Assembly (NCBI GenBank): GCA_002310055.1
Contig: DBXS01000010.1
Span: forward strand, 2,598 to 66,597
Length of the DNA: 64,000 bases
Direction of reading: 5' to 3'
Source: Clostridiales bacterium UBA1206
Lineage (GTDB): Bacteria > Bacillota > Clostridia > Oscillospirales > CAG-382
How positions within the stretch are numbered: the first letter of the stretch is position 1; the number at the start of each line of letters is the position of its first letter. The translations under genes were made by a program, and so were the position numbers. A model generated the notes under the pieces. That model was not told the origin of the DNA and made no database searches. It was given only the letters and a program-made list of their open reading frames with translations. This document shows positions 56,444 to 64,000 of this stretch, piece after piece.

Positions 56444-58912
56444 TTAGATAATGGGCGGGTTGATATCGATATCCGCGCGCACCGGCTTGCGGACGAGCTT
56501 ACATATTTCGGCGTACGATTCCGCAAGGAACGCGCGGGATGCGGATTTGTCTTTGTATTTTATGATTATCCTCTGCCTATATTTGTTGCGCAGCCGGTAC
56601 ACGCCTTCACGGTACGGGCCGAGCTTGATTATGGGAAGTTCGGGATATTTCTGCGCGTGGATGCGCGCTATCACGCCGCTCATCGCCTCGGCTGCCGAGT
56701 TCGCGTCGGATTCGGTCTCGGCGGCGAAGGTGAACACCGCGATATCGCAGAACGGCGGGAACACCACCGCGCGCCTGAGCGCGATCTCGCTTTTGTAGAA
56801 CTTTTCGTAATCCTGCGTCATCGAAAGACGGAGTATCTCGTTTTCGGGATTATACGTCTGGAACAGCGCTTCGCCTTTTCGGTCGCTTCTGCCGGAGCGC
56901 CCCGCCAGCTGAGTGAACAGCGAAAACGTGCGCTCGCCCGCGCGGAAGTCGTTCATATAAAGCGACGAATCGGCCGAGACCACGCCCACCAGCCCCACTT
57001 TGGGGAAATCCAGCCCTTTGGCTATCATCTGCGTGCCGAACAGCACGTCGTATTCGCCCTGCGCGAAGGCGCGGATGATGTTTTCGTGCGAATATTTTTC
57101 CGACGTGGTGTCGGCGTCCATACGCACGCAGTTGAGGGACGGAAAATCTGACGCGAGTTCGTCCTGGAGTTTCTGCGTGCCGAAACCCGTGTGGCCGATA
57201 TGCGGACTGCCGCATTCGGTACATACGTCGGGCTTGTTCATAACGTAGCCGCAGTAATGACAGATGAGCTTGTTGCGTTTTGAAGCGTCGCCGTACGCAT
57301 GGTACGTGAGCGACACCGAGCAGTTGGGGCAGGTGAAGACGTGCCCGCATTTCATACAGTAAAGGTGCGAATCGTACCCGCGACGGTTGACGAACAGTAT
57401 GCTCTGCCGCCCCTCACGCGCGGTGTTTTCGATTTCTTCGGCGAGCTGCGACGAGATTATCATGCCGTTTTCGGCGCGTTCGTCGCGGCGCATATCGAGA
57501 GCGCGGCATTCCGGCATTTCGGCGTCGCCCGCGCGTGACGGAAGCCGGATGAGTTCGTATATCCCCTGCTGCGCTTTGAAGAAGCTTTCGACAGAAGGCG
57601 TCGCCGAAGCGAGCAGCATAAGGCATTTGTTATGCGCGCAGCGGAACCGCGCTATGTCGCGCGCGTGATATTTGGGAGTGTTTTCGGATTTATAAGTGTG
57701 CTCCTGTTCTTCGTCTATAGCGATGAGCCCGATATTGTCGAGCGGCGCGAATACCGCCGAGCGGGTGCCTATGACCACGTCCACTTCGTGAGCGAGTATG
57801 CGGCGGCAGGTATCCAGCCGTTCTCCCACCGAAAGCATCGAATGCAGCACCGCGAGCCGTTCGCCGAAAGCGCCGCGGAACACCGACACCGCCTGCGCGG
57901 TGAGTCCTATCTCCGCCACGAGCACTATGGCGGATCTGCCCGACGCAATGGCTTTTTTGCACGCTTCGATTATGACGCGCGTCTTGCCGCTGCCGGTCAC
58001 GCCGTAAAGCAGCGCGGCTTTGGGCTCGCCGCTTTCCATAAGCGTTCCTATCCGTTCGAACGCCGCAGTCTGACATTCGTTGAGCGGGAGCGCGGAAACG
58101 TCTTTTGCCGTGCGCGGTTCGGAAATATAGTACGCGCGTTCTTCCGGGCGTTCGTATTTTTCAAGTATGTTCGACCTGCAAAGTCCGGTAAGCACCGACC
58201 TGCCTATGCCGAAAAGTTCTTCCGCTTCGTTCGCGCCTATGACGCCGCCGTCTTTGAGGAAGGCGACTATGCGGCGCTGTTTTTCGGTGCGCAGCGATTC
58301 GGGGTTTTCGGCGGCGTACGCCGCCTCGTCGCCCGACGCGAGCTTATACATAAGCGACTTTTTTTCGTTTATCTTTTTGCGGGATTCGCTCGTCATCCTG
58401 AGCGCGCCGAGCTTTGCGAGCGAACGCAGGAGTATCGAGACCTCCTCGCCGAATTCGGTGACAAGCGCGCTTTCGGGAGTCCTGCCGTTTTCCGCGATAT
58501 AATCGTAGATAAAGCATCCTTTGTCGTTTAAGCGCGTTTTGTCGTATTCGAGCGCCTCGAAATAAACGCGCGTCTCTATCTCCTGCCCCGCGGGCAGCGC
58601 GGTGCGCACCGCCGCGCCGAACGTGCAGAAACAGCGTTCGCTCATAAAGCGGCAGAGCGAAAGCGTTTCGTCGTTCAGCGGCACGGGATATTCGAATATG
58701 TCGGCGAGCGGCTTGACCTGCGGATATTCGCATTCGTCGGCGAGCGAGGTTATGACCCCGGTGCGCAGTTTGTTGGAATTGCCGTACGGCACCGTACACA
58801 TCGCGCCCGCGCGCGCTTTGGCGCGCAGTTCGGGACGGATATAGTAAGTATATTCGCGGTCATAGCGCTGCGTCGCGTTGAGGATGCGCACAAAGGCGTA
58901 GACCTTTTCCAT
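56444..58912 (-). CDS. priA: primosomal replication-restart helicase PriA
   Basis: Walker A GVTGSGKT, DEEQ box, and a Cys-rich zinc insertion (CMKCGHVFTCPNC...CHYCG...CTECG). Confidence 0.95.
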   Translation of the reverse strand: MEKVYAFVRILNATQRYDREYTYYIRPELRAKARAGAMCTVPYGNSNKLRTGVITSLADECEYPQVKPLADIFEYPVPLNDETLSLCRFMSERCFCTFGAAVRTALPAGQEIETRVYFEALEYDKTRLNDKGCFIYDYIAENGRTPESALVTEFGEEVSILLRSLAKLGALRMTSESRKKINEKKSLMYKLASGDEAAYAAENPESLRTEKQRRIVAFLKDGGVIGANEAEELFGIGRSVLTGLCRSNILEKYERPEERAYYISEPRTAKDVSALPLNECQTAAFERIGTLMESGEPKAALLYGVTGSGKTRVIIEACKKAIASGRSAIVLVAEIGLTAQAVSVFRGAFGERLAVLHSMLSVGERLDTCRRILAHEVDVVIGTRSAVFAPLDNIGLIAIDEEQEHTYKSENTPKYHARDIARFRCAHNKCLMLLASATPSVESFFKAQQGIYELIRLPSRAGDAEMPECRALDMRRDERAENGMIISSQLAEEIENTAREGRQSILFVNRRGYDSHLYCMKCGHVFTCPNCSVSLTYHAYGDASKRNKLICHYCGYVMNKPDVCTECGSPHIGHTGFGTQKLQDELASDFPSLNCVRMDADTTSEKYSHENIIRAFAQGEYDVLFGTQMIAKGLDFPKVGLVGVVSADSSLYMNDFRAGERTFSLFTQLAGRSGRSDRKGEALFQTYNPENEILRLSMTQDYEKFYKSEIALRRAVVFPPFCDIAVFTFAAETESDANSAAEAMSGVIARIHAQKYPELPIIKLGPYREGVYRLRNKYRQRIIIKYKDKSASRAFLAESYAEICKLVRKPVRADIDINPPII

Positions 58913-59188
58913 TTATTCCTGTTCGGCTTTGAGCAGCTCTTCGGGGAGTATTATCTTGAACTCCTCGTCGCAGAGCTTGCGGATGGTCACCGAAACGGCT
59001 TTTTCGTTTACGGCTTCGCCGGTCGGAAGTTTGACGTCCTTGCCGTGTTCTTCGCGCTTGAGTTCGACTTCCTCGCGTTCCTTGTTCTGCTTGTCGTTGA
59101 TATAACGCGCTCCCTTTGCGGTGGCTATGACGAGAGCGTAACGGTTGACTTTGTCGTTAGTCATTTGCTGAACGGAAGGGTACAACAT
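58913..59188 (-). CDS. rpoZ: DNA-directed RNA polymerase subunit omega
   Basis: NRYALVIATAKGARYI core. Position between gmk and priA. Its stop codon abuts the priA ATG. Confidence 0.88.
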   Translation of the reverse strand: MLYPSVQQMTNDKVNRYALVIATAKGARYINDKQNKEREEVELKREEHGKDVKLPTGEAVNEKAVSVTIRKLCDEEFKIILPEELLKAEQE

Positions 59189-59221: not shown

Positions 59222-59830
59222 TTATTCCGGTAAAATTATATGCGGGATACCGCGCTTTGACGAAAGCTGCTCCGCGCGCACGATCTCGCGCACGTACTGC
59301 GCCGAAAGATCGCTTTTCCCGTCTTCGTTGACGATTATATAATCGTACTTGGGCATAAGCGAAAGCTCGTGACGCGCCGTGGAAAGCCGGCGGATAATGG
59401 CTTCCTCGGTCTCGGTGTTCCTGCCGCGCAGACGGGCTTCGAGCTGTTCGTACGAAGGCGGGCAGATGAATATCAGCACAGCGTCACGCATCTTGCTCTT
59501 GACCTGGAACGCGCCGTCGGTCTCTATTTCGAGCACCACGTTTTCGCCCGCTTCGAAATGCGCTTTCATGGGTGGGAGCGGCGTGCCGTAATAGTTGCCG
59601 TTGTATTCGGTGTATTCGAGCATTTCGCCCCTCTTTACGCGGCGCATGAATTCGGTGCGGGTGACAAAGTAGTAATCCTCGCCCTCGCGTTCCATATAGC
59701 GCGGTTTGCGCGAAGTTGCGGAGACCGATTTGAAATAATTGCTTTCACCTTCCACAAGGTAATTGACAATGGTCCCCTTGCCCACTCCGGCGGGGCCGGA
59801 AATTATAAGCAGTAATCCTTTATTTATCAT
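59222..59830 (-). CDS. gmk: guanylate kinase
   Basis: P-loop GPAGVGKGT and the pattern S.TSR.PR..E..G.DY.F. Confidence 0.95.
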   Translation of the reverse strand: MINKGLLLIISGPAGVGKGTIVNYLVEGESNYFKSVSATSRKPRYMEREGEDYYFVTRTEFMRRVKRGEMLEYTEYNGNYYGTPLPPMKAHFEAGENVVLEIETDGAFQVKSKMRDAVLIFICPPSYEQLEARLRGRNTETEEAIIRRLSTARHELSLMPKYDYIIVNEDGKSDLSAQYVREIVRAEQLSSKRGIPHIILPE

Positions 59831-60065
59831 CGGCGGCGTTCATCCTTTCTATTATCGTTTCGGGCTCTTCTGCCGAAAGAATGAAATGCTCGCTGTCGGT
59901 GATTATGACAGAGCGCGTCTTTTTGCCGCAGCTGACGTCGATGGCGCGGTTGGCGTTTTTGGCGTCCTGGACCAGCCGGCGAACCGGAAGCGAATCCGGC
60001 GATACCACGCAGACCACTCTTGCCGCGTTGACGCTGCTGCCGAAACCGATATCGGCAAATTTCAT
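59820..60065 (-). CDS. remA: DUF370 protein RemA (extracellular-matrix regulator family)
   Basis: 81 aa. IGFGSSVNAARVVCVVSPDS.PVRRL...KTRSVIITDS, canonical DUF370. Conserved position upstream of gmk. Confidence 0.88.
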   Translation of the reverse strand: MKFADIGFGSSVNAARVVCVVSPDSLPVRRLVQDAKNANRAIDVSCGKKTRSVIITDSEHFILSAEEPETIIERMNAADDK

Positions 60066-60079
60066 TTTTATGCCTCCGT

Positions 60080-60958
60080 TTACTCTATGTTCTGTATCTG
60101 TTCTCTGATTTTTTCAAGTTCCGCCTTGGCGTCTATGACAATTCCCGCCATTTCGGTGTTGTTGCATTTGGAACCCGTGGTGTTGATCTCGCGGTTGATC
60201 TCCTGCACCAGAAAATCCATTTTTTTGCCTATGGCGGCGGATTTTTCGAGCATATCCTCGAACTGCGCGAGATGGCTGCCCAGCCGCACGAGCTCTTCGG
60301 TGACGTCGCAGCGGTCGGCGTAGACCGCGCATTCGGTGAGCAGACGGGTCTCGTCCACCGGCGCGCCGCCCAGCAGTTCTTTCACGCGCTCGCACATACG
60401 CGCGTTGGCTTCTTTGACCGAATCCGGCGCGAGCAGCGCGAGTCTTTCGCGCATAGACGCGAGTGACGCGAGCCGCGCAGAGATGTCTTCGCGCAGTTTT
60501 TCGCCCTCTTTTTCGCGCATCTGCATATAAGCGTCGAGCGCCTCGCCTAGCACGGCGCGGACGTCGAGCCACACCGATTCTATGTCTTCTTCGGGCTTTC
60601 GCGCGATGAATACTTCCTGTTTCATCGAAAGCATGCGCAGGTCGATCTCCCCCGCGACGCCGTAATCCTCTTTTATCTTGCGCAGCGAATCCATATATGC
60701 TTCAAGATATTCGCGGTTCAGCGAAAGTTGCGTGGGATCGCCTTCTATATTGTCGATGGAAACGTATACGTCGATCTTCCCGCGCGAAACGCGTTCCGAA
60801 ACGGTCTTCTTGATGCGCTCCTCGAACGCCGAATACATACGGTTGATGCGCACGTTCTGTTCGAGATAGCGGTTGTTGACGGATTTTATCTCGCAGGTGA
60901 TGTCCCTGCCGCCGATCAGTTTTCTGGCGCGGCCGTAGCCGGTCATGCTTCTTATCAT
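60080..60958 (-). CDS. yicC: YicC/YloC family endoribonuclease (stress-induced protein)
   Basis: MIRSMTGYGRA N-terminus and C-terminal EINREINTTGSK...ELEKIREQIQNIE. Confidence 0.9.
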   Translation of the reverse strand: MIRSMTGYGRARKLIGGRDITCEIKSVNNRYLEQNVRINRMYSAFEERIKKTVSERVSRGKIDVYVSIDNIEGDPTQLSLNREYLEAYMDSLRKIKEDYGVAGEIDLRMLSMKQEVFIARKPEEDIESVWLDVRAVLGEALDAYMQMREKEGEKLREDISARLASLASMRERLALLAPDSVKEANARMCERVKELLGGAPVDETRLLTECAVYADRCDVTEELVRLGSHLAQFEDMLEKSAAIGKKMDFLVQEINREINTTGSKCNNTEMAGIVIDAKAELEKIREQIQNIE

Positions 60959-60959
60959 T

Positions 60960-61469
60960 TCAGCTCCTCCCGCGCTTGAAAAGCGCGTAATACCTTGATA
61001 TCATAAGCGTGAGCGCTATATCGTAGACGACGAAGATGAAGTTGCCCAGCAGATACACCCACCATACGAACCCCAGCGGCTCGTCGCTCGCCACGGTAAA
61101 ATACATGCCGAGCCAGATTATAAGCGTGAGCATCACGTTTGAAACGACTATCTTTACCGCCCACATAAGCGGCTTGTTTTTTATGAGCTCGCAGAATTCC
61201 TTGATTATGGAATACAGCCCGCCGTAAAACACGAAAACTATGGCGGTATTCTTGTTTGGCAGCAGCACGAACGCGAGCAGTCCGGACGCGGCGTAAACGC
61301 CGAGCGCTGTCACCCGGTCGCATTCTATGCGCGCGATTATGACGAGTATCCCGGCGGCGAACGCCGCGGTCATATCCAGCGAGGTTATCACGCTGCCCAG
61401 CGACATCAAAAGCACCGCGGAAGCCGAAAGCACTCCGGCGAGCGCCACGCGTTTAGTCTTTTTTTTCAT
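60960..61469 (-). CDS. small multi-TM membrane protein of unknown function
   Basis: ORF 60960..61718 trimmed to ATG 61469 (the upstream part overlaps the J-protein gene). About five hydrophobic helices. No family recognised. Confidence 0.6.
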   Translation of the reverse strand: MKKKTKRVALAGVLSASAVLLMSLGSVITSLDMTAAFAAGILVIIARIECDRVTALGVYAASGLLAFVLLPNKNTAIVFVFYGGLYSIIKEFCELIKNKPLMWAVKIVVSNVMLTLIIWLGMYFTVASDEPLGFVWWVYLLGNFIFVVYDIALTLMISRYYALFKRGRS

Positions 61470-61477
61470 ATCGCGCC

Positions 61478-62074
61478 TCACCTGCAGCAGCTGCACATAA
61501 GATCGGCGCAGATGAGCCCGGTGCAGATATCGCATCCGGTGCATCCTCCGGTATCGGCGGTGTTGTACGGCGAACTGCGGGCGGTGTTGGAAAACATATC
61601 GAGCATATTGCGGTATTCGGCGTTGGAAGGATCCAACTGACAGGCGAGCGTAAGATGCTCGCGCGCCTGCTGCAGCCATCCCTTGCGCATATATACCACG
61701 CCGGTGAGGAAATGCCATTCGGCGCTGTTTTTGTCGGGCTCGCGGTCTAACAGGATCTCGGCTTCGGATATGCGGTTCTGATTTAGCAGGTCGCGTATGC
61801 GGGCGTAACCCGAAGACGCGCCCGAACTGCCGGTATAACCGGAAGAATATGTATCGTTCCCGCCGCTCGAATACGTTCCGCCCGAAGCGCGCATCTTGGT
61901 GATCGTGTCGTACGCTTCGTTTATTTCCTTCATCTTTTCGTCGGCGAGGTCGGCGAGCGGGTTGTCGACGTAGTTGTCGGGATGGTATTTCTTTACCAAG
62001 GCGCGGTACGCCTTTTTGATCTCTTCGTCGGACGCCTGAGGCGAAACGCCCAAGACTTTGTAGGGATCTGTCAT
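61478..62074 (-). CDS. J-domain protein with a TPR-like middle and a cysteine-rich C-terminal tail
   Basis: J-domain DPYKVLGV...[17 protein letters not shown]-like [24 protein letters not shown]. Tail [23 protein letters not shown]. Confidence 0.85.
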
Positions 62075-62928
62075 TTATCGGTTCCTTTCAGTTTATTCGC
62101 CGCGGCGGCGAAACAATCCGCCGAGCCGAGCTGCGCGATATTGTAGACCAGTTTATCGTAAACGCTGCCGCCGGACCGTTCGTACGCGCGGCAGAACGCG
62201 TGGATGCTGTCGCGCAAAGTCTGCCCGATATCCCCGGCGGCGCCGATGACGGCGTCCGGAGAGCCGTAATATTCCGCAAGCACGTTGAAATTGCCCTTTT
62301 TTTCGTCGCGCAATACGTCCTCGAACGCGTCTATAAGGTAGATATATCTGCCGATATGGTAGCCGCATTCCCAAAGGATATCGCGTTCTTCCCCTTCGGT
62401 ACCGTACGACGCGGCGAGCGCCGTGACGGCGGCAAAGGAATCCGAAACCAGATCGGGCGAAGAGACGCGCGCTTTTTCAAGCCCGGCAAGCGCCGAAAGC
62501 CGCTCTTTCACGTCTTCCGCAAGGCCCGGACACAGCGCCGAAGCGCGTTTGAACATACCGCGTGCGAACAGCGCCCTGAATTTTGCCGCGACGCGTGAAA
62601 GACCGCGATTGTCGGCGACGTCGTCGAGCGCCTTGTAATACAGCAGTATTCCGAAAGCCGCCGAAGTATAGAGGGCGGATTCGTTTTCGCACAGCATACA
62701 TTTCTTTTTGAGCGAATACGGGCAGCGGCGCGTTTCGGCGCACGCTTTGTCGCCGCATACCGCCATGCGCACCAGACACAGAAAGACGAAATCGTTATTC
62801 AAAAGCAGCCGCGTAAAGCGCGAAACGCGCTTGCCGCCGATACGGCAGATCCCGCAGTAGACCGCTTTGTAAAACTCGTTTTCCTTGACCAGAAGTTCGG
62901 AGGCGCGGGGCTTTATGTAACCGAACAC
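62071..62928 (-). CDS. DUF5685 family protein
   Basis: GTG start after AAGGAGG. The N-terminus (M)[28 protein letters not shown] matches the DUF5685 signature as I remember it. ATGA overlap with the J-protein gene. Confidence 0.7.
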
Positions 62929-62986
62929 GGCGACGCCTCCTTCTGAAAGTCATAATCTGCGCATATTACAGTTATTTTATTATAGT

Positions 62987-63015
62987 ATAATAGCACAAAC
63001 GAACCGAAAAATCAA
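62987..63015 (-). promoter_or_regulatory. sigma-A-like promoter (TTGATT-N17-TATTAT, TG-extended) for the DUF5685-led gene string
   Basis: On the minus strand: TTGATT (63015-63010), 17-nt spacer ending in TGC, TATTAT (62992-62987). Confidence 0.5.
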
Positions 63016-63117: not shown

Positions 63118-63146
63118 TTGCAATTCCCCGCCGGGTGATGTATAAT
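63118..63146 (+). promoter_or_regulatory. sigma-A-like promoter (TTGCAA-N17-TATAAT) for gpmI
   Basis: TTGCAA at 63118-63123 and TATAAT at 63141-63146, leaving a 5' UTR of about 85 nt. Confidence 0.6.
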
Positions 63147-63235: not shown

Positions 63236-64000
63236 ATGAAAAAAGTCTTTGAAAACGAAAAAAGGCCCGTTGTCCTTATAGTGATGGACGGCGTGGGCTA
63301 CACCGAATCCGCTGTCGGCAACGCGGTCAAAGCCGCCAACACTCCCGTGCTCGATATGCTTGCCGAAAAATATCCGCATCTGCTGCTCAAAGCGCACGGG
63401 ACCGCGGTGGGGCTCCCCTCCGACGCCGATATGGGCAACAGCGAAGTCGGCCACAACGCGCTCGGCGCGGGCCAGGTCTTCGCACAGGGCGCCAAGCTCG
63501 TTTCGGGCGCGATCGAAACCGGCAGGATCTTCGCTTCCGACACCTGGAAAGAGCTCGTGGAAAACTGCGTGAAAAACGGCACGACGCTGCATTTTCTGGG
63601 ACTTTTTTCGGACGGCAACGTCCATTCGCATATAGACCACCTCAAAGCGCTCATAATCAAAGCCAAGGAATGCGGAGTAAAGCGCGTCCGCGTCCATACC
63701 CTGCTCGACGGCCGCGACGTCGGCGAGACTTCTGCGCTCGAATACATACTCCCGTTCGAAGAATTCCTGCGTTCGCTCAACTGCTCGTCTTTCGACGCGC
63801 GCATCGCCTCCGGCGGCGGCAGGATGGTCATAACGATGGACCGCTACGAAGCGAACTGGAAGATGGTCGAACTGGGCTGGAACACCCACGTGCTGGGCGA
63901 GGGCAGACAGTTCGCCACGGCCGAGGAAGCCGTTAAGACATACCGCGCCGAGACCGGCAAGATCGACCAGGATCTGCCCCCGTTCGTCATAGCCGAAAAC
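63236..64000 (+). CDS. gpmI: 2,3-bisphosphoglycerate-independent phosphoglycerate mutase (3' end outside the window)
   Basis: Not in the ORF track (no stop codon within the window). AAGGAGAAAC SD sequence. VVLIVMDGVGY, DADMGNSEVGHNALGAG, HFLGLFSDGNVHSH and RIASGGGRM are canonical iPGM motifs. Confidence 0.92.
   Translation, partial: MKKVFENEKRPVVLIVMDGVGYTESAVGNAVKAANTPVLDMLAEKYPHLLLKAHGTAVGLPSDADMGNSEVGHNALGAGQVFAQGAKLVSGAIETGRIFASDTWKELVENCVKNGTTLHFLGLFSDGNVHSHIDHLKALIIKAKECGVKRVRVHTLLDGRDVGETSALEYILPFEEFLRSLNCSSFDARIASGGGRMVITMDRYEANWKMVELGWNTHVLGEGRQFATAEEAVKTYRAETGKIDQDLPPFVIAEN

Follow-up and report, generated by a model that had tools for sequence, protein, structure and literature searches.

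Polypeptide prenylation by bacterial enzymes that resemble isoprenyl diphosphate synthases of the trans type (trans-IDS) is known from gene pairs in which ComQ, ChrPC or PalQ prenylates a peptide encoded next door (PMC13290415, PMC10853753). Here, we describe a three-gene locus on a 64,000-nt stretch of DNA from Clostridiales bacterium UBA1206 (contig DBXS01000010.1; hereafter the window), which encodes a DUF5685 protein, a J-domain protein with a cysteine-rich C-terminal tail and a small membrane protein. As in the ComQ/ComX and PalQ/PalX pairs and in ChrPC, the putative enzyme DUF5685 combines an isoprenoid-synthase fold, predicted in this case, with Asp-rich motifs (PMC13290415, PMC10853753, PMC5331326). 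Likewise, the enzyme is encoded directly in front of a polypeptide whose conserved C-terminal region is the candidate target, and the two genes often overlap. [quoted passage not shown] Unlike the ComQ-type substrates, its tail has multiple Cys and no Trp, and only in the Pusillibacter clade do the tails contain Trp or Tyr. DUF5685 differs from the ComQ type also by lacking significant similarity to PF00348 and by an extra site of three cysteines (Cys3), and its relation to the substrate is a proposal of which the adjacency of the genes is the observed part.

The J-domain protein (J-protein) has counterparts in eukaryotes, in the palmitoylated cysteine string protein (CSP) DNAJC5 and in Ydj1/DNAJA, which is farnesylated at a CaaX motif. 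All of them possess an N-terminal J-domain and a cysteine-based element, located centrally or at the C-terminus, which in the eukaryotic proteins carries a membrane-anchoring lipid; for the bacterial tail, lipidation is hypothetical. Beyond the J-domain, the proteins are not homologous. CSP lacks a TPR and carries its string internally, whereas in the bacterial J-protein the string is C-terminal and follows a TPR. Ydj1 is a class A protein whose single CaaX cysteine is modified by an alpha/beta barrel zinc farnesyltransferase; a conserved CaaX, CC or CXC box is absent in the J-protein family described here, and an alpha/beta protein prenyltransferase fold was not found in the module. A bacterial relative in function is the class-C J-protein DjlA of Escherichia coli, which is presumed to guide DnaK to the cytoplasmic membrane. 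Unlike the J-protein of the window, DjlA has an N-terminal transmembrane anchor and a C-terminal J-domain and lacks a TPR, a cysteine tail and a coupled enzyme; NCBIfam models match our protein in its J-domain part only. The module would work like class-C membrane J-proteins, lipidated eukaryotic J-proteins and ComQ-type pairs, and is a member of none of these groups. We found no relevant paper on bacterial cysteine-string J-proteins and none describing a function of DUF5685; the sole paper found that names the family merely lists it among the hypothetical-protein domains of Clostridioides difficile R20291 (PMC9403866).

The three genes constitute a conserved, translationally coupled module. 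A scan with one genome per species yielded at least 591 DUF5685 loci, and gene order was counted in the 80 loci closest to the window; a second set of 80 metagenomic loci represented the Pusillibacter clade, giving 160 loci in both sets combined. The sampled loci stem mostly from Oscillospiraceae-type and unclassified Clostridia metagenome-assembled genomes (MAGs) and cover the DUF5685 family short of its most divergent ~4,000 clusters (the family comprises 5,726 clusters at 50% identity, E ≤ 1e-3). In 79 of the 80 closest loci, the J-protein gene comes immediately after DUF5685, the exception being a contig end, and it does so in 158 of all 160 (79/80 in each set, the remainder again contig ends). 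The membrane protein gene is present after the J-protein gene in 76 of the 80 closest loci. The median distance between the stop of DUF5685 and the start of the J-protein gene is −4 nt, with an overlap in 61% of pairs, and a median gap of 3.5 nt separates the J-protein stop from the start of the membrane protein gene. Thus, the tight coupling of the three genes, and the linkage of DUF5685 to the J-protein, both noted in a first-pass annotation made from the letters of the window, recur in other genomes. The same gene order was found in representatives with only 26–27% DUF5685 identity to the window protein, in the cultured Subdoligranulum variabile and in two reverse look-ups that started from J-proteins.

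The flanking genes are variable and of housekeeping type (a dGTPase-like HD protein, dnaG, sigA, pheST, tex, rimO-like, spoIIR), and the loci are situated in core housekeeping neighbourhoods of Oscillospiraceae/Ruminococcaceae-type gut Clostridia, including the cultured Subdoligranulum and Pusillibacter. As only 45 of the 80 closest loci have yicC behind the triad, the description of the triad as heading a yicC-remA-gmk cluster holds for the window and does not define the module, to which yicC is variably linked. No isoprenoid, iron–sulfur (Fe-S) or chaperone genes recur in the neighbourhoods of DUF5685 loci, and no polyprenyl synthase gene was found within the window or in the 80 flanks; ispD and ispF lie ~4 kb upstream in Pusillibacter and are not recurrent. 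None of the three triad proteins was matched by PADLOC defence-system models. In a distant clade with 27% DUF5685 identity, a 287-aa protein with a hydrophobic N-terminal region and no Pfam family is encoded 16 nt upstream of DUF5685 (locus L084, 3121–3984; also L085 and L086), and a MatE transporter and a lipase replace yicC after the triad.

DUF5685 of the window matches its Pfam family PF18937 over nearly the full profile (positions 1–268 of 272; E 8e-57; 193.1 bits against a cut-off of 26.7). The AlphaFold2 model, computed from a 28-sequence alignment, reached a predicted local distance difference test score (pLDDT) of 94 and a predicted template modeling score (pTM) of 0.91; it is all-helical with one beta-hairpin at residues 64–79. 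In a Foldseek comparison of this model with the PDB, all top 50 matches were trans-IDS or related prenyltransferases, among them IspB, GGPPS, hexaprenyl and heptaprenyl synthases, MoeN5 and Ord1. The lowest E-value (1.6e-4) was that of 3wjn_B, and template modeling (TM) scores among the top matches were 0.55–0.66. Residue conservation was computed over 151 DUF5685 representatives at 26–43% identity. Y24-C25-G26-x-C28, C69, D102, D106, E151, D200, D204, D208 and N215 are conserved at 99–100%, and each of the residues D102, D106, E151, D200, D204, D208 and N215 reaches 100%. Within the first Asp-rich motif, D103 is variable and is Gly in Pusillibacter. The second motif, D200xxxD204xxxD208, does not conform to the canonical form of either DDxxD or NSE/DTE; its i, i+4, i+8 spacing corresponds to that of the metal triad (NSE/DTE) in class I terpene synthases. 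Because the predicted fold is that of trans-IDS and the Asp-rich motifs are invariant, DUF5685 is most likely a divergent isoprenoid-synthase-fold enzyme, predicted to bind a Mg2+-prenyl diphosphate, and the complete conservation of the putative catalytic Asp and Asn residues makes a dead enzyme unlikely.

Compared with the trans-IDS themselves (E. coli IspB, IspA, GGPPS; PF00348), the predicted all-helical fold is shared, the first D(D)xxD motif ends the equivalent helix and the second Asp-rich motif lies on the opposing helix. However, the similarity in sequence does not reach significance, DxxxDxxxD stands in place of DDxxD as the second motif, helix C and the region-I loop are apparently replaced by a beta-hairpin with R68, C69 and K74–76, and the protein is shorter (285 aa) and has an extra N-terminal YCGxC helix. 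As judged from the model, what links the module to the isoprenoid-synthase superfamily is the fold and the Asp-rich motifs, the second of which is not canonical. Neither sequence nor profile searches gave a significant similarity of DUF5685 to PF00348 or related families; among 28 DUF5685 members, one weakly matched polyprenyl_synt (E 0.02) and two weakly matched DUF2600 (E 0.009), to which the Bacillus subtilis terpene synthase YtpB belongs. The DUF5685 profile had no relevant match to all PDB sequences, and its only matches there, designed helical repeats and Pil1, were discarded as noise (E > 0.03). A non-significant hhalign alignment with IspB places, in a single register, DDVAD (102–106) on HDDVVD of the first and IDAFED (199–204) on IDDLLD of the second Asp-rich motif. 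The string GGKRVSR (residues 31–37) was matched by eye to region I (GGKRxRP) of trans-IDS and not used, as the global hhalign alignment puts region I on the K74–K76 hairpin.

The invariant YCGxC helix and the R68-C69-P hairpin are additions specific to DUF5685. The cysteine motifs pointed out in the first-pass annotation at residues 24–29 and 69–80 are present, the former as YCGICR, and their conservation was upheld in part: C25, C28 and C69 are family-wide, whereas C77 and C80 are clade-specific. With three family-wide cysteines and a trans-IDS-like predicted fold, the idea that DUF5685 is simply a Cys-rich client was not borne out. We infer from the conservation pattern that C25, C28 and C69 form a putative metal site. 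In the global, non-significant hhalign alignment, the R68-C69-P hairpin falls on the region-I loop of trans-IDS, which binds the nucleophilic substrate.

The J-protein contains a canonical J-domain (Pfam DnaJ, E 1.6e-18), as had been proposed, with the HPD motif at residues 31–33, and H31, P32 and D33 are invariant across 22 orthologues. The TPR-like segment suggested in that annotation was also recovered: TPR_2 scored 27.1 bits in the window protein against a cut-off of 27.0, TPR_16 gave an E of 1.4e-5, and TPR_2 was matched in 22/22 family members. Neither the DnaJ zinc finger (PF00684) nor DnaJ_C (PF01556) was matched at E ≤ 0.1, and the NCBIfam DnaJ equivalogs cover only residues 1–60 to 1–98 with scores far under their cut-offs. 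The protein, with an HPD J-domain and without zinc finger or DnaJ_C, is therefore a class-C J-protein.

The window J-protein ends in ...CSCCR, and the seven Cys reported for its last 21 residues were counted again in the sequence. The tail, of some 20–30 residues (median 25), is present in 197/197 complete orthologues. In composition it is 35% Cys, 11% each of Leu and Gly and 10% Asp, while Lys, Trp and Tyr are nearly lacking (0.0% Trp in the window clade). Among 190 unique sequences, the last 42 residues hold a mean of 8.8 Cys compared with 1.2 in the remaining protein; as judged from these sequences, the tail is not a product of chance. C181, C184, C189 and C194 are invariant among the orthologues, and conservation is at least 90% for C178 and for D182. 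The window clade has a spacing of CxxC(D)xCxxxxC followed by further cysteines. This spacing (CxxCxxCxxxxC...) contains none of the CxxCxGxG repeats of DnaJ, and Pfam models, including CYSTM and the DnaJ zinc finger, did not match the tail, which is not a zinc finger of the DnaJ type. Tails of the Pusillibacter clade are of a different type, DLCGSNLCLPMCCLWSLCSGSVPICCYC, which lacks CxxC and acidic residues and contains Pro plus Trp or Tyr. As spacing and composition change between clades, what is conserved is a terminal, Cys-rich, hydrophobic string rather than a ligand geometry. The hydropathy is moderate, ~1.3 on the Kyte-Doolittle scale by hand calculation, and the endings vary across the family (RCC, SCC, CCR, RCI, GRC, PCH and others).

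CYSTM (PF12734) is a eukaryotic cysteine-rich, tail-anchored transmembrane module and, like the J-protein tail, a C-terminal, Cys-rich, hydrophobic segment at the protein end; the bacterial tails differ from it in containing Asp, Gly and Pro, in being only moderately hydrophobic and in lacking a Pfam match, and CYSTM proteins, unlike the bacterial J-protein, have no J-domain. Eight residues upstream of the tail cysteines, S168-P169-Y170 is near-invariant, and this pre-tail Tyr motif (SPY) may serve in docking or recognition. In every clade inspected, a Tyr stands 7–12 residues ahead of the first tail Cys, within GYR, GYN, AYR or PYG where it is not part of SPY.

The third protein of the triad is membrane-embedded by prediction and has basic residues at both ends. 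It had no sequence match in Pfam, NCBIfam or PDB, nor did a scan of 16 diverse members at E ≤ 10 give one, and a word-index search returned 13 close homologues only. Its AlphaFold2 model, from the shallow 13-sequence alignment, shows six helices (pLDDT 75). The best Foldseek match was weak (TmRibU, 5kbw_B; E 0.5, probability 0.94, TM 0.55), a protein of the S-component class of energy-coupling factor (ECF) transporters; 5edl ranked third, and S-components were the only membrane-protein matches. We therefore tentatively note a resemblance of the model to ECF S-components, with which the protein shares a length of ~170 aa, six helices and basic residues at both ends. On the other hand, none of the known S-component sequence families in Pfam, NCBIfam or PDB matched it, ecfA and ecfT are not among the recurrent neighbours of triad loci, although shared Ecf modules may be encoded elsewhere, and the protein is absent in one clade. 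An ICMT-like or Rce1-like fold, which would fit a CaaX-type pathway, was looked for and is absent among its Foldseek matches.

The clade without the six-helix gene is that of Pusillibacter, a gut Oscillospiraceae clade, in which the gene was found in 0 of the 80 metagenomic loci. Instead, 76 of these 80 loci encode, immediately before DUF5685, a membrane protein of the RseC_MucC family (PF04246, E 1e-25), with SACGHDCEECAGCG as its Cys-rich N-terminus; this variant module is seen in Pusillibacter faecalis (NZ_AP023421; L097, 5586–7508) and in loci L099–L178. The window and its clade contain no RseC-like genes. A change in tail chemistry thus goes along with a change of membrane partner, which in these two clades hints at an interaction of the J-protein tail with the membrane partner.

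The predicted prenyl-synthase fold of DUF5685 provides a concrete reason for its coupling to a cysteine-string tail. We consider it possible, with a confidence that stays clearly short of even, that DUF5685 S-prenylates the tail and so turns the J-protein into a lipid-anchored recruiter of DnaK at the membrane. DUF5685 would bind a prenyl diphosphate (e.g., farnesyl diphosphate) via Mg2+ held by D102/D106 and D200/D204/D208 and would move the prenyl group onto cysteine thiols of the tail, possibly after activation of the thiol by a metal at the Cys3 site. Zinc sites of three Cys, with a substrate thiol as the fourth ligand, are known from thiol-alkylating enzymes, among them BHMT and MetH. The lipidated tail would anchor the J-protein at the membrane beside its partner membrane protein, where the J-domain would stimulate the ATPase of DnaK and recruit it to membrane-proximal clients, while the TPR would select the client or dock onto the partner. 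As only the Cys-rich, hydrophobic and C-terminal character of the tail is kept between clades, lipidation or a membrane string fits it better than a fixed metal site. A membrane-associated, DnaK-recruiting role of the J-protein, as put forward in the first-pass annotation, is plausible. It is doubtful that the module is the first case of bacterial protein cysteine S-prenylation, in which a trans-IDS-fold enzyme with a thiol-activating Cys3 site would serve a dedicated, lipid-anchored J-protein in many gut Clostridia. Just as doubtful is the analogy by which such a system would be a convergent counterpart of the farnesylated and palmitoylated eukaryotic J-proteins, with an unrelated enzyme fold.

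Several observations weigh against tail prenylation. With hhalign, DUF5685 aligned non-significantly with E. coli IspB or a 10-sequence polyprenyl-synthase alignment (E 0.058–0.24), so the fold assignment depends on the predicted model. Enzymes with a trans-IDS fold are not known to prenylate cysteine. The tail endings include no conserved CaaX-like terminus. Moreover, the CxxC(D)xCxxxxC spacing of the window clade and its two Asp are strongly conserved and look like a metal site, and the Pusillibacter clade pairs the module with a protein of the RseC family, which is tied to redox and Fe-S maintenance; metal or redox chemistry would fit the CxxCxxC spacing and the link to RseC just as well. 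Finally, all characterised trans-IDS-like peptide prenyltransferases target tryptophan (PMC13290415).

An alternative, somewhat less likely still, is that DUF5685 acts on small isoprenoid molecules, as a terpene synthase or a prenyl-chain transferase or synthase. The six-helix protein would then handle a hydrophobic product or substrate at the membrane, and the J-protein, as a dedicated co-chaperone, would recruit DnaK to assemble, activate or turn over the enzyme or the membrane complex, being held at the membrane by an unmodified Cys-rich, hydrophobic tail; this is essentially the client model of the first-pass annotation with an identity given to the enzyme. Enzymes acting on small-molecule prenyl diphosphates have this fold and these Asp-rich motifs, the weak matches to the YtpB/DUF2600 terpene synthase family point the same way, and the membrane protein bears a weak resemblance to the S-components of ECF transporters, which bind substrates. 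A single client is the common case for class-C J-proteins, and the moderate hydropathy of the tail (~1.3) could permit membrane association without modification, although the tail has Asp or Pro and is short for a transmembrane helix. This explanation accounts neither for the Cys-richness of the tail in every clade nor for the invariant Cys3 site of the enzyme; J-proteins dedicated to metabolic enzymes are rare, and one clade lacks the six-helix protein entirely.

Rather improbable in our judgement is a metal, Fe-S or thiol-redox module, in which the tail and Cys3 of DUF5685 would bind Zn or an Fe-S cluster and the J-protein would recruit DnaK for transfer of the cluster or cofactor, on the model of HscB-IscU or the Fe-S chloroplast J-proteins CDJ3-5, with RseC-type partners supplying reducing power. 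The window-clade CxxCxxCxxxxC with its conserved Asp resembles ferredoxin-type motifs, three invariant cysteines, as in DUF5685, typically belong to a cluster in which one iron is open, and the position of the RseC_MucC gene directly before DUF5685 in 76/80 Pusillibacter-clade loci fits; J-proteins with metal or Fe-S domains do exist (HscB, Dph4, CDJ3-5). Yet the spacing of the tail cysteines differs between clades, it is the RseC-linked clade whose tails are without CxxC or acidic residues, and the Leu/Ile/Met-rich tails are unlike known cluster-binding peptides or metallothioneins. In addition, the invariant Asp-rich, diphosphate-binding motifs would be left without a role, and isc, suf and nif genes do not recur in the neighbourhood. 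Very improbable, finally, is the absence of any specific functional relation, with a housekeeping operon shared for expression and DUF5685 as a non-catalytic structural relative of prenyl synthases. The neighbours dnaG, sigA, pheST, yicC, remA, gmk and priA, the sigma-70-type promoter that drives the operon and the lack of a sequence-significant link of DUF5685 to characterised enzymes would suit it, but the genes stay adjacent, with overlapping stop and start, at identities as low as 26% though all flanking genes change, and the putative catalytic Asp and Asn are 100% conserved in the 151 divergent representatives.

The positions of the features in the window are compiled in Table 1. All three minus-strand open reading frames (ORFs) of the triad were found in the window sequence exactly where the first-pass annotation had put them, and the ATGA overlap, the spacings and the TG-extended promoter likewise agree with it. 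The membrane protein gene starts 8 nt past the J-protein stop and ends 1 nt short of yicC, whose ATG is at 60958 on the minus strand. The promoter has 9 of 12 consensus positions plus the upstream TG and is located ~50–60 nt from the DUF5685 start, within a 307-nt divergent intergenic region that the triad has in common with gpmI. This region also holds a promoter-like site on the plus strand (63118–63146). No Rfam family, riboswitch or leader RNA was matched anywhere in the window.

Table 1 Features of the DUF5685 locus and its neighbourhood (positions in the window)
Feature	Position	Strand	Remarks
DUF5685 gene	62071-62928	minus	285 aa; GTG start; AGGAGG ribosome-binding site 7 nt upstream
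YCGxC motif, C25-G-I-C28	62845-62856	minus	invariant in 28 sequences; ≥99% in 151 representatives
C69 in R68-C69-P70	62722-62724	minus	100% conserved; beta-hairpin 64-79 before first Asp-motif helix
First Asp-rich motif, D102-D-V-A-D106	62611-62625	minus	C-terminal end of helix 83-106
Second Asp-rich motif, D200-AFE-D204-VLR-D208	62305-62331	minus	100% conserved Asp residues
N215	62284-62286	minus	100% conserved; after second Asp-rich motif
J-protein gene	61478-62074	minus	198 aa; start overlaps DUF5685 stop as ATGA
J-domain, residues 3-59	61898-62068	minus	HPD encoded at 61976-61984
TPR-like segment, residues ~90-158	61601-61807	minus	follows Gly/Ser/Tyr-rich linker, residues ~63-89
S168-P169-Y170	61565-61573	minus	near-invariant; 8 residues upstream of tail cysteines; ≥90% in close family
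C-terminal cysteine-string tail, residues 176-198	61481-61549	minus	7 Cys in last 21 residues
Small membrane protein gene	60960-61469	minus	169 aa; six predicted helices
Promoter, sigma-70-type	62987-63015	minus	TTGATT, 17-nt spacer, TG-extended TATTAT
gpmI (2,3-bisphosphoglycerate-independent phosphoglycerate mutase)	63236-64000	plus	iPGM_N E 1.7e-45; divergent to triad
yicC	60080-60958	minus	downstream; YicC by Pfam
remA-like	59820-60065	minus	downstream; RemA-like by Pfam
gmk	59222-59830	minus	downstream; guanylate kinase by Pfam
91-aa ORF at rpoZ position	58913-59188	minus	no Pfam match at E ≤ 1e-3
priA	56444-58912	minus	PriA by Pfam

From DUF5685 to priA, every intergenic gap is at most 33 nt and no terminator-like site occurs between them on the minus strand, which suggests, as far as sequence can tell, that these genes form a single long operon; the genes from yicC to priA are probably co-transcribed with the triad. 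They are context and lie outside the conserved module. The stop region of the remA-like gene and the start of gmk overlap by 11 nt (59820–59830). The 91-aa ORF contains the RpoZ-like stretch NRYALVIATAKGAR, and relatives have rpoZ annotated at this position. Between this ORF and priA, coaBC is absent, a gene order unlike that of B. subtilis. The window shares ~96% protein-level identity with a Clostridia MAG from goat omasum.

The record NZ_AP023421.1 (L097), a 504 kb 'plasmid' named pMM59_01 and typed as conjugative, carries priA, rpoZ, gmk, def, fmt, ispD, ispF and cdaA; with these core genes aboard, it behaves like a chromid or a chromosome fragment. The plasmid collection also contains chromosome-sized records of Acetoanaerobium noterae (2.6 Mb, L092) and E. 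coli (4.8 Mb).

With the presented analysis, the anonymous and widespread DUF5685 family becomes the subject of a testable hypothesis, that of a prenyl-synthase-fold enzyme locked to a cysteine-tailed J-protein. If the module instead binds metal or makes a terpenoid, it would still define an Hsp70 co-chaperone system of a new, specialised kind. Prenylation of the tail, if it occurs, would be a new protein lipidation chemistry for bacteria; it would extend the trans-IDS-like prenyltransferases from Trp to Cys and from RiPPs to a housekeeping protein and would show how Gram-positive anaerobes position DnaK at the membrane.

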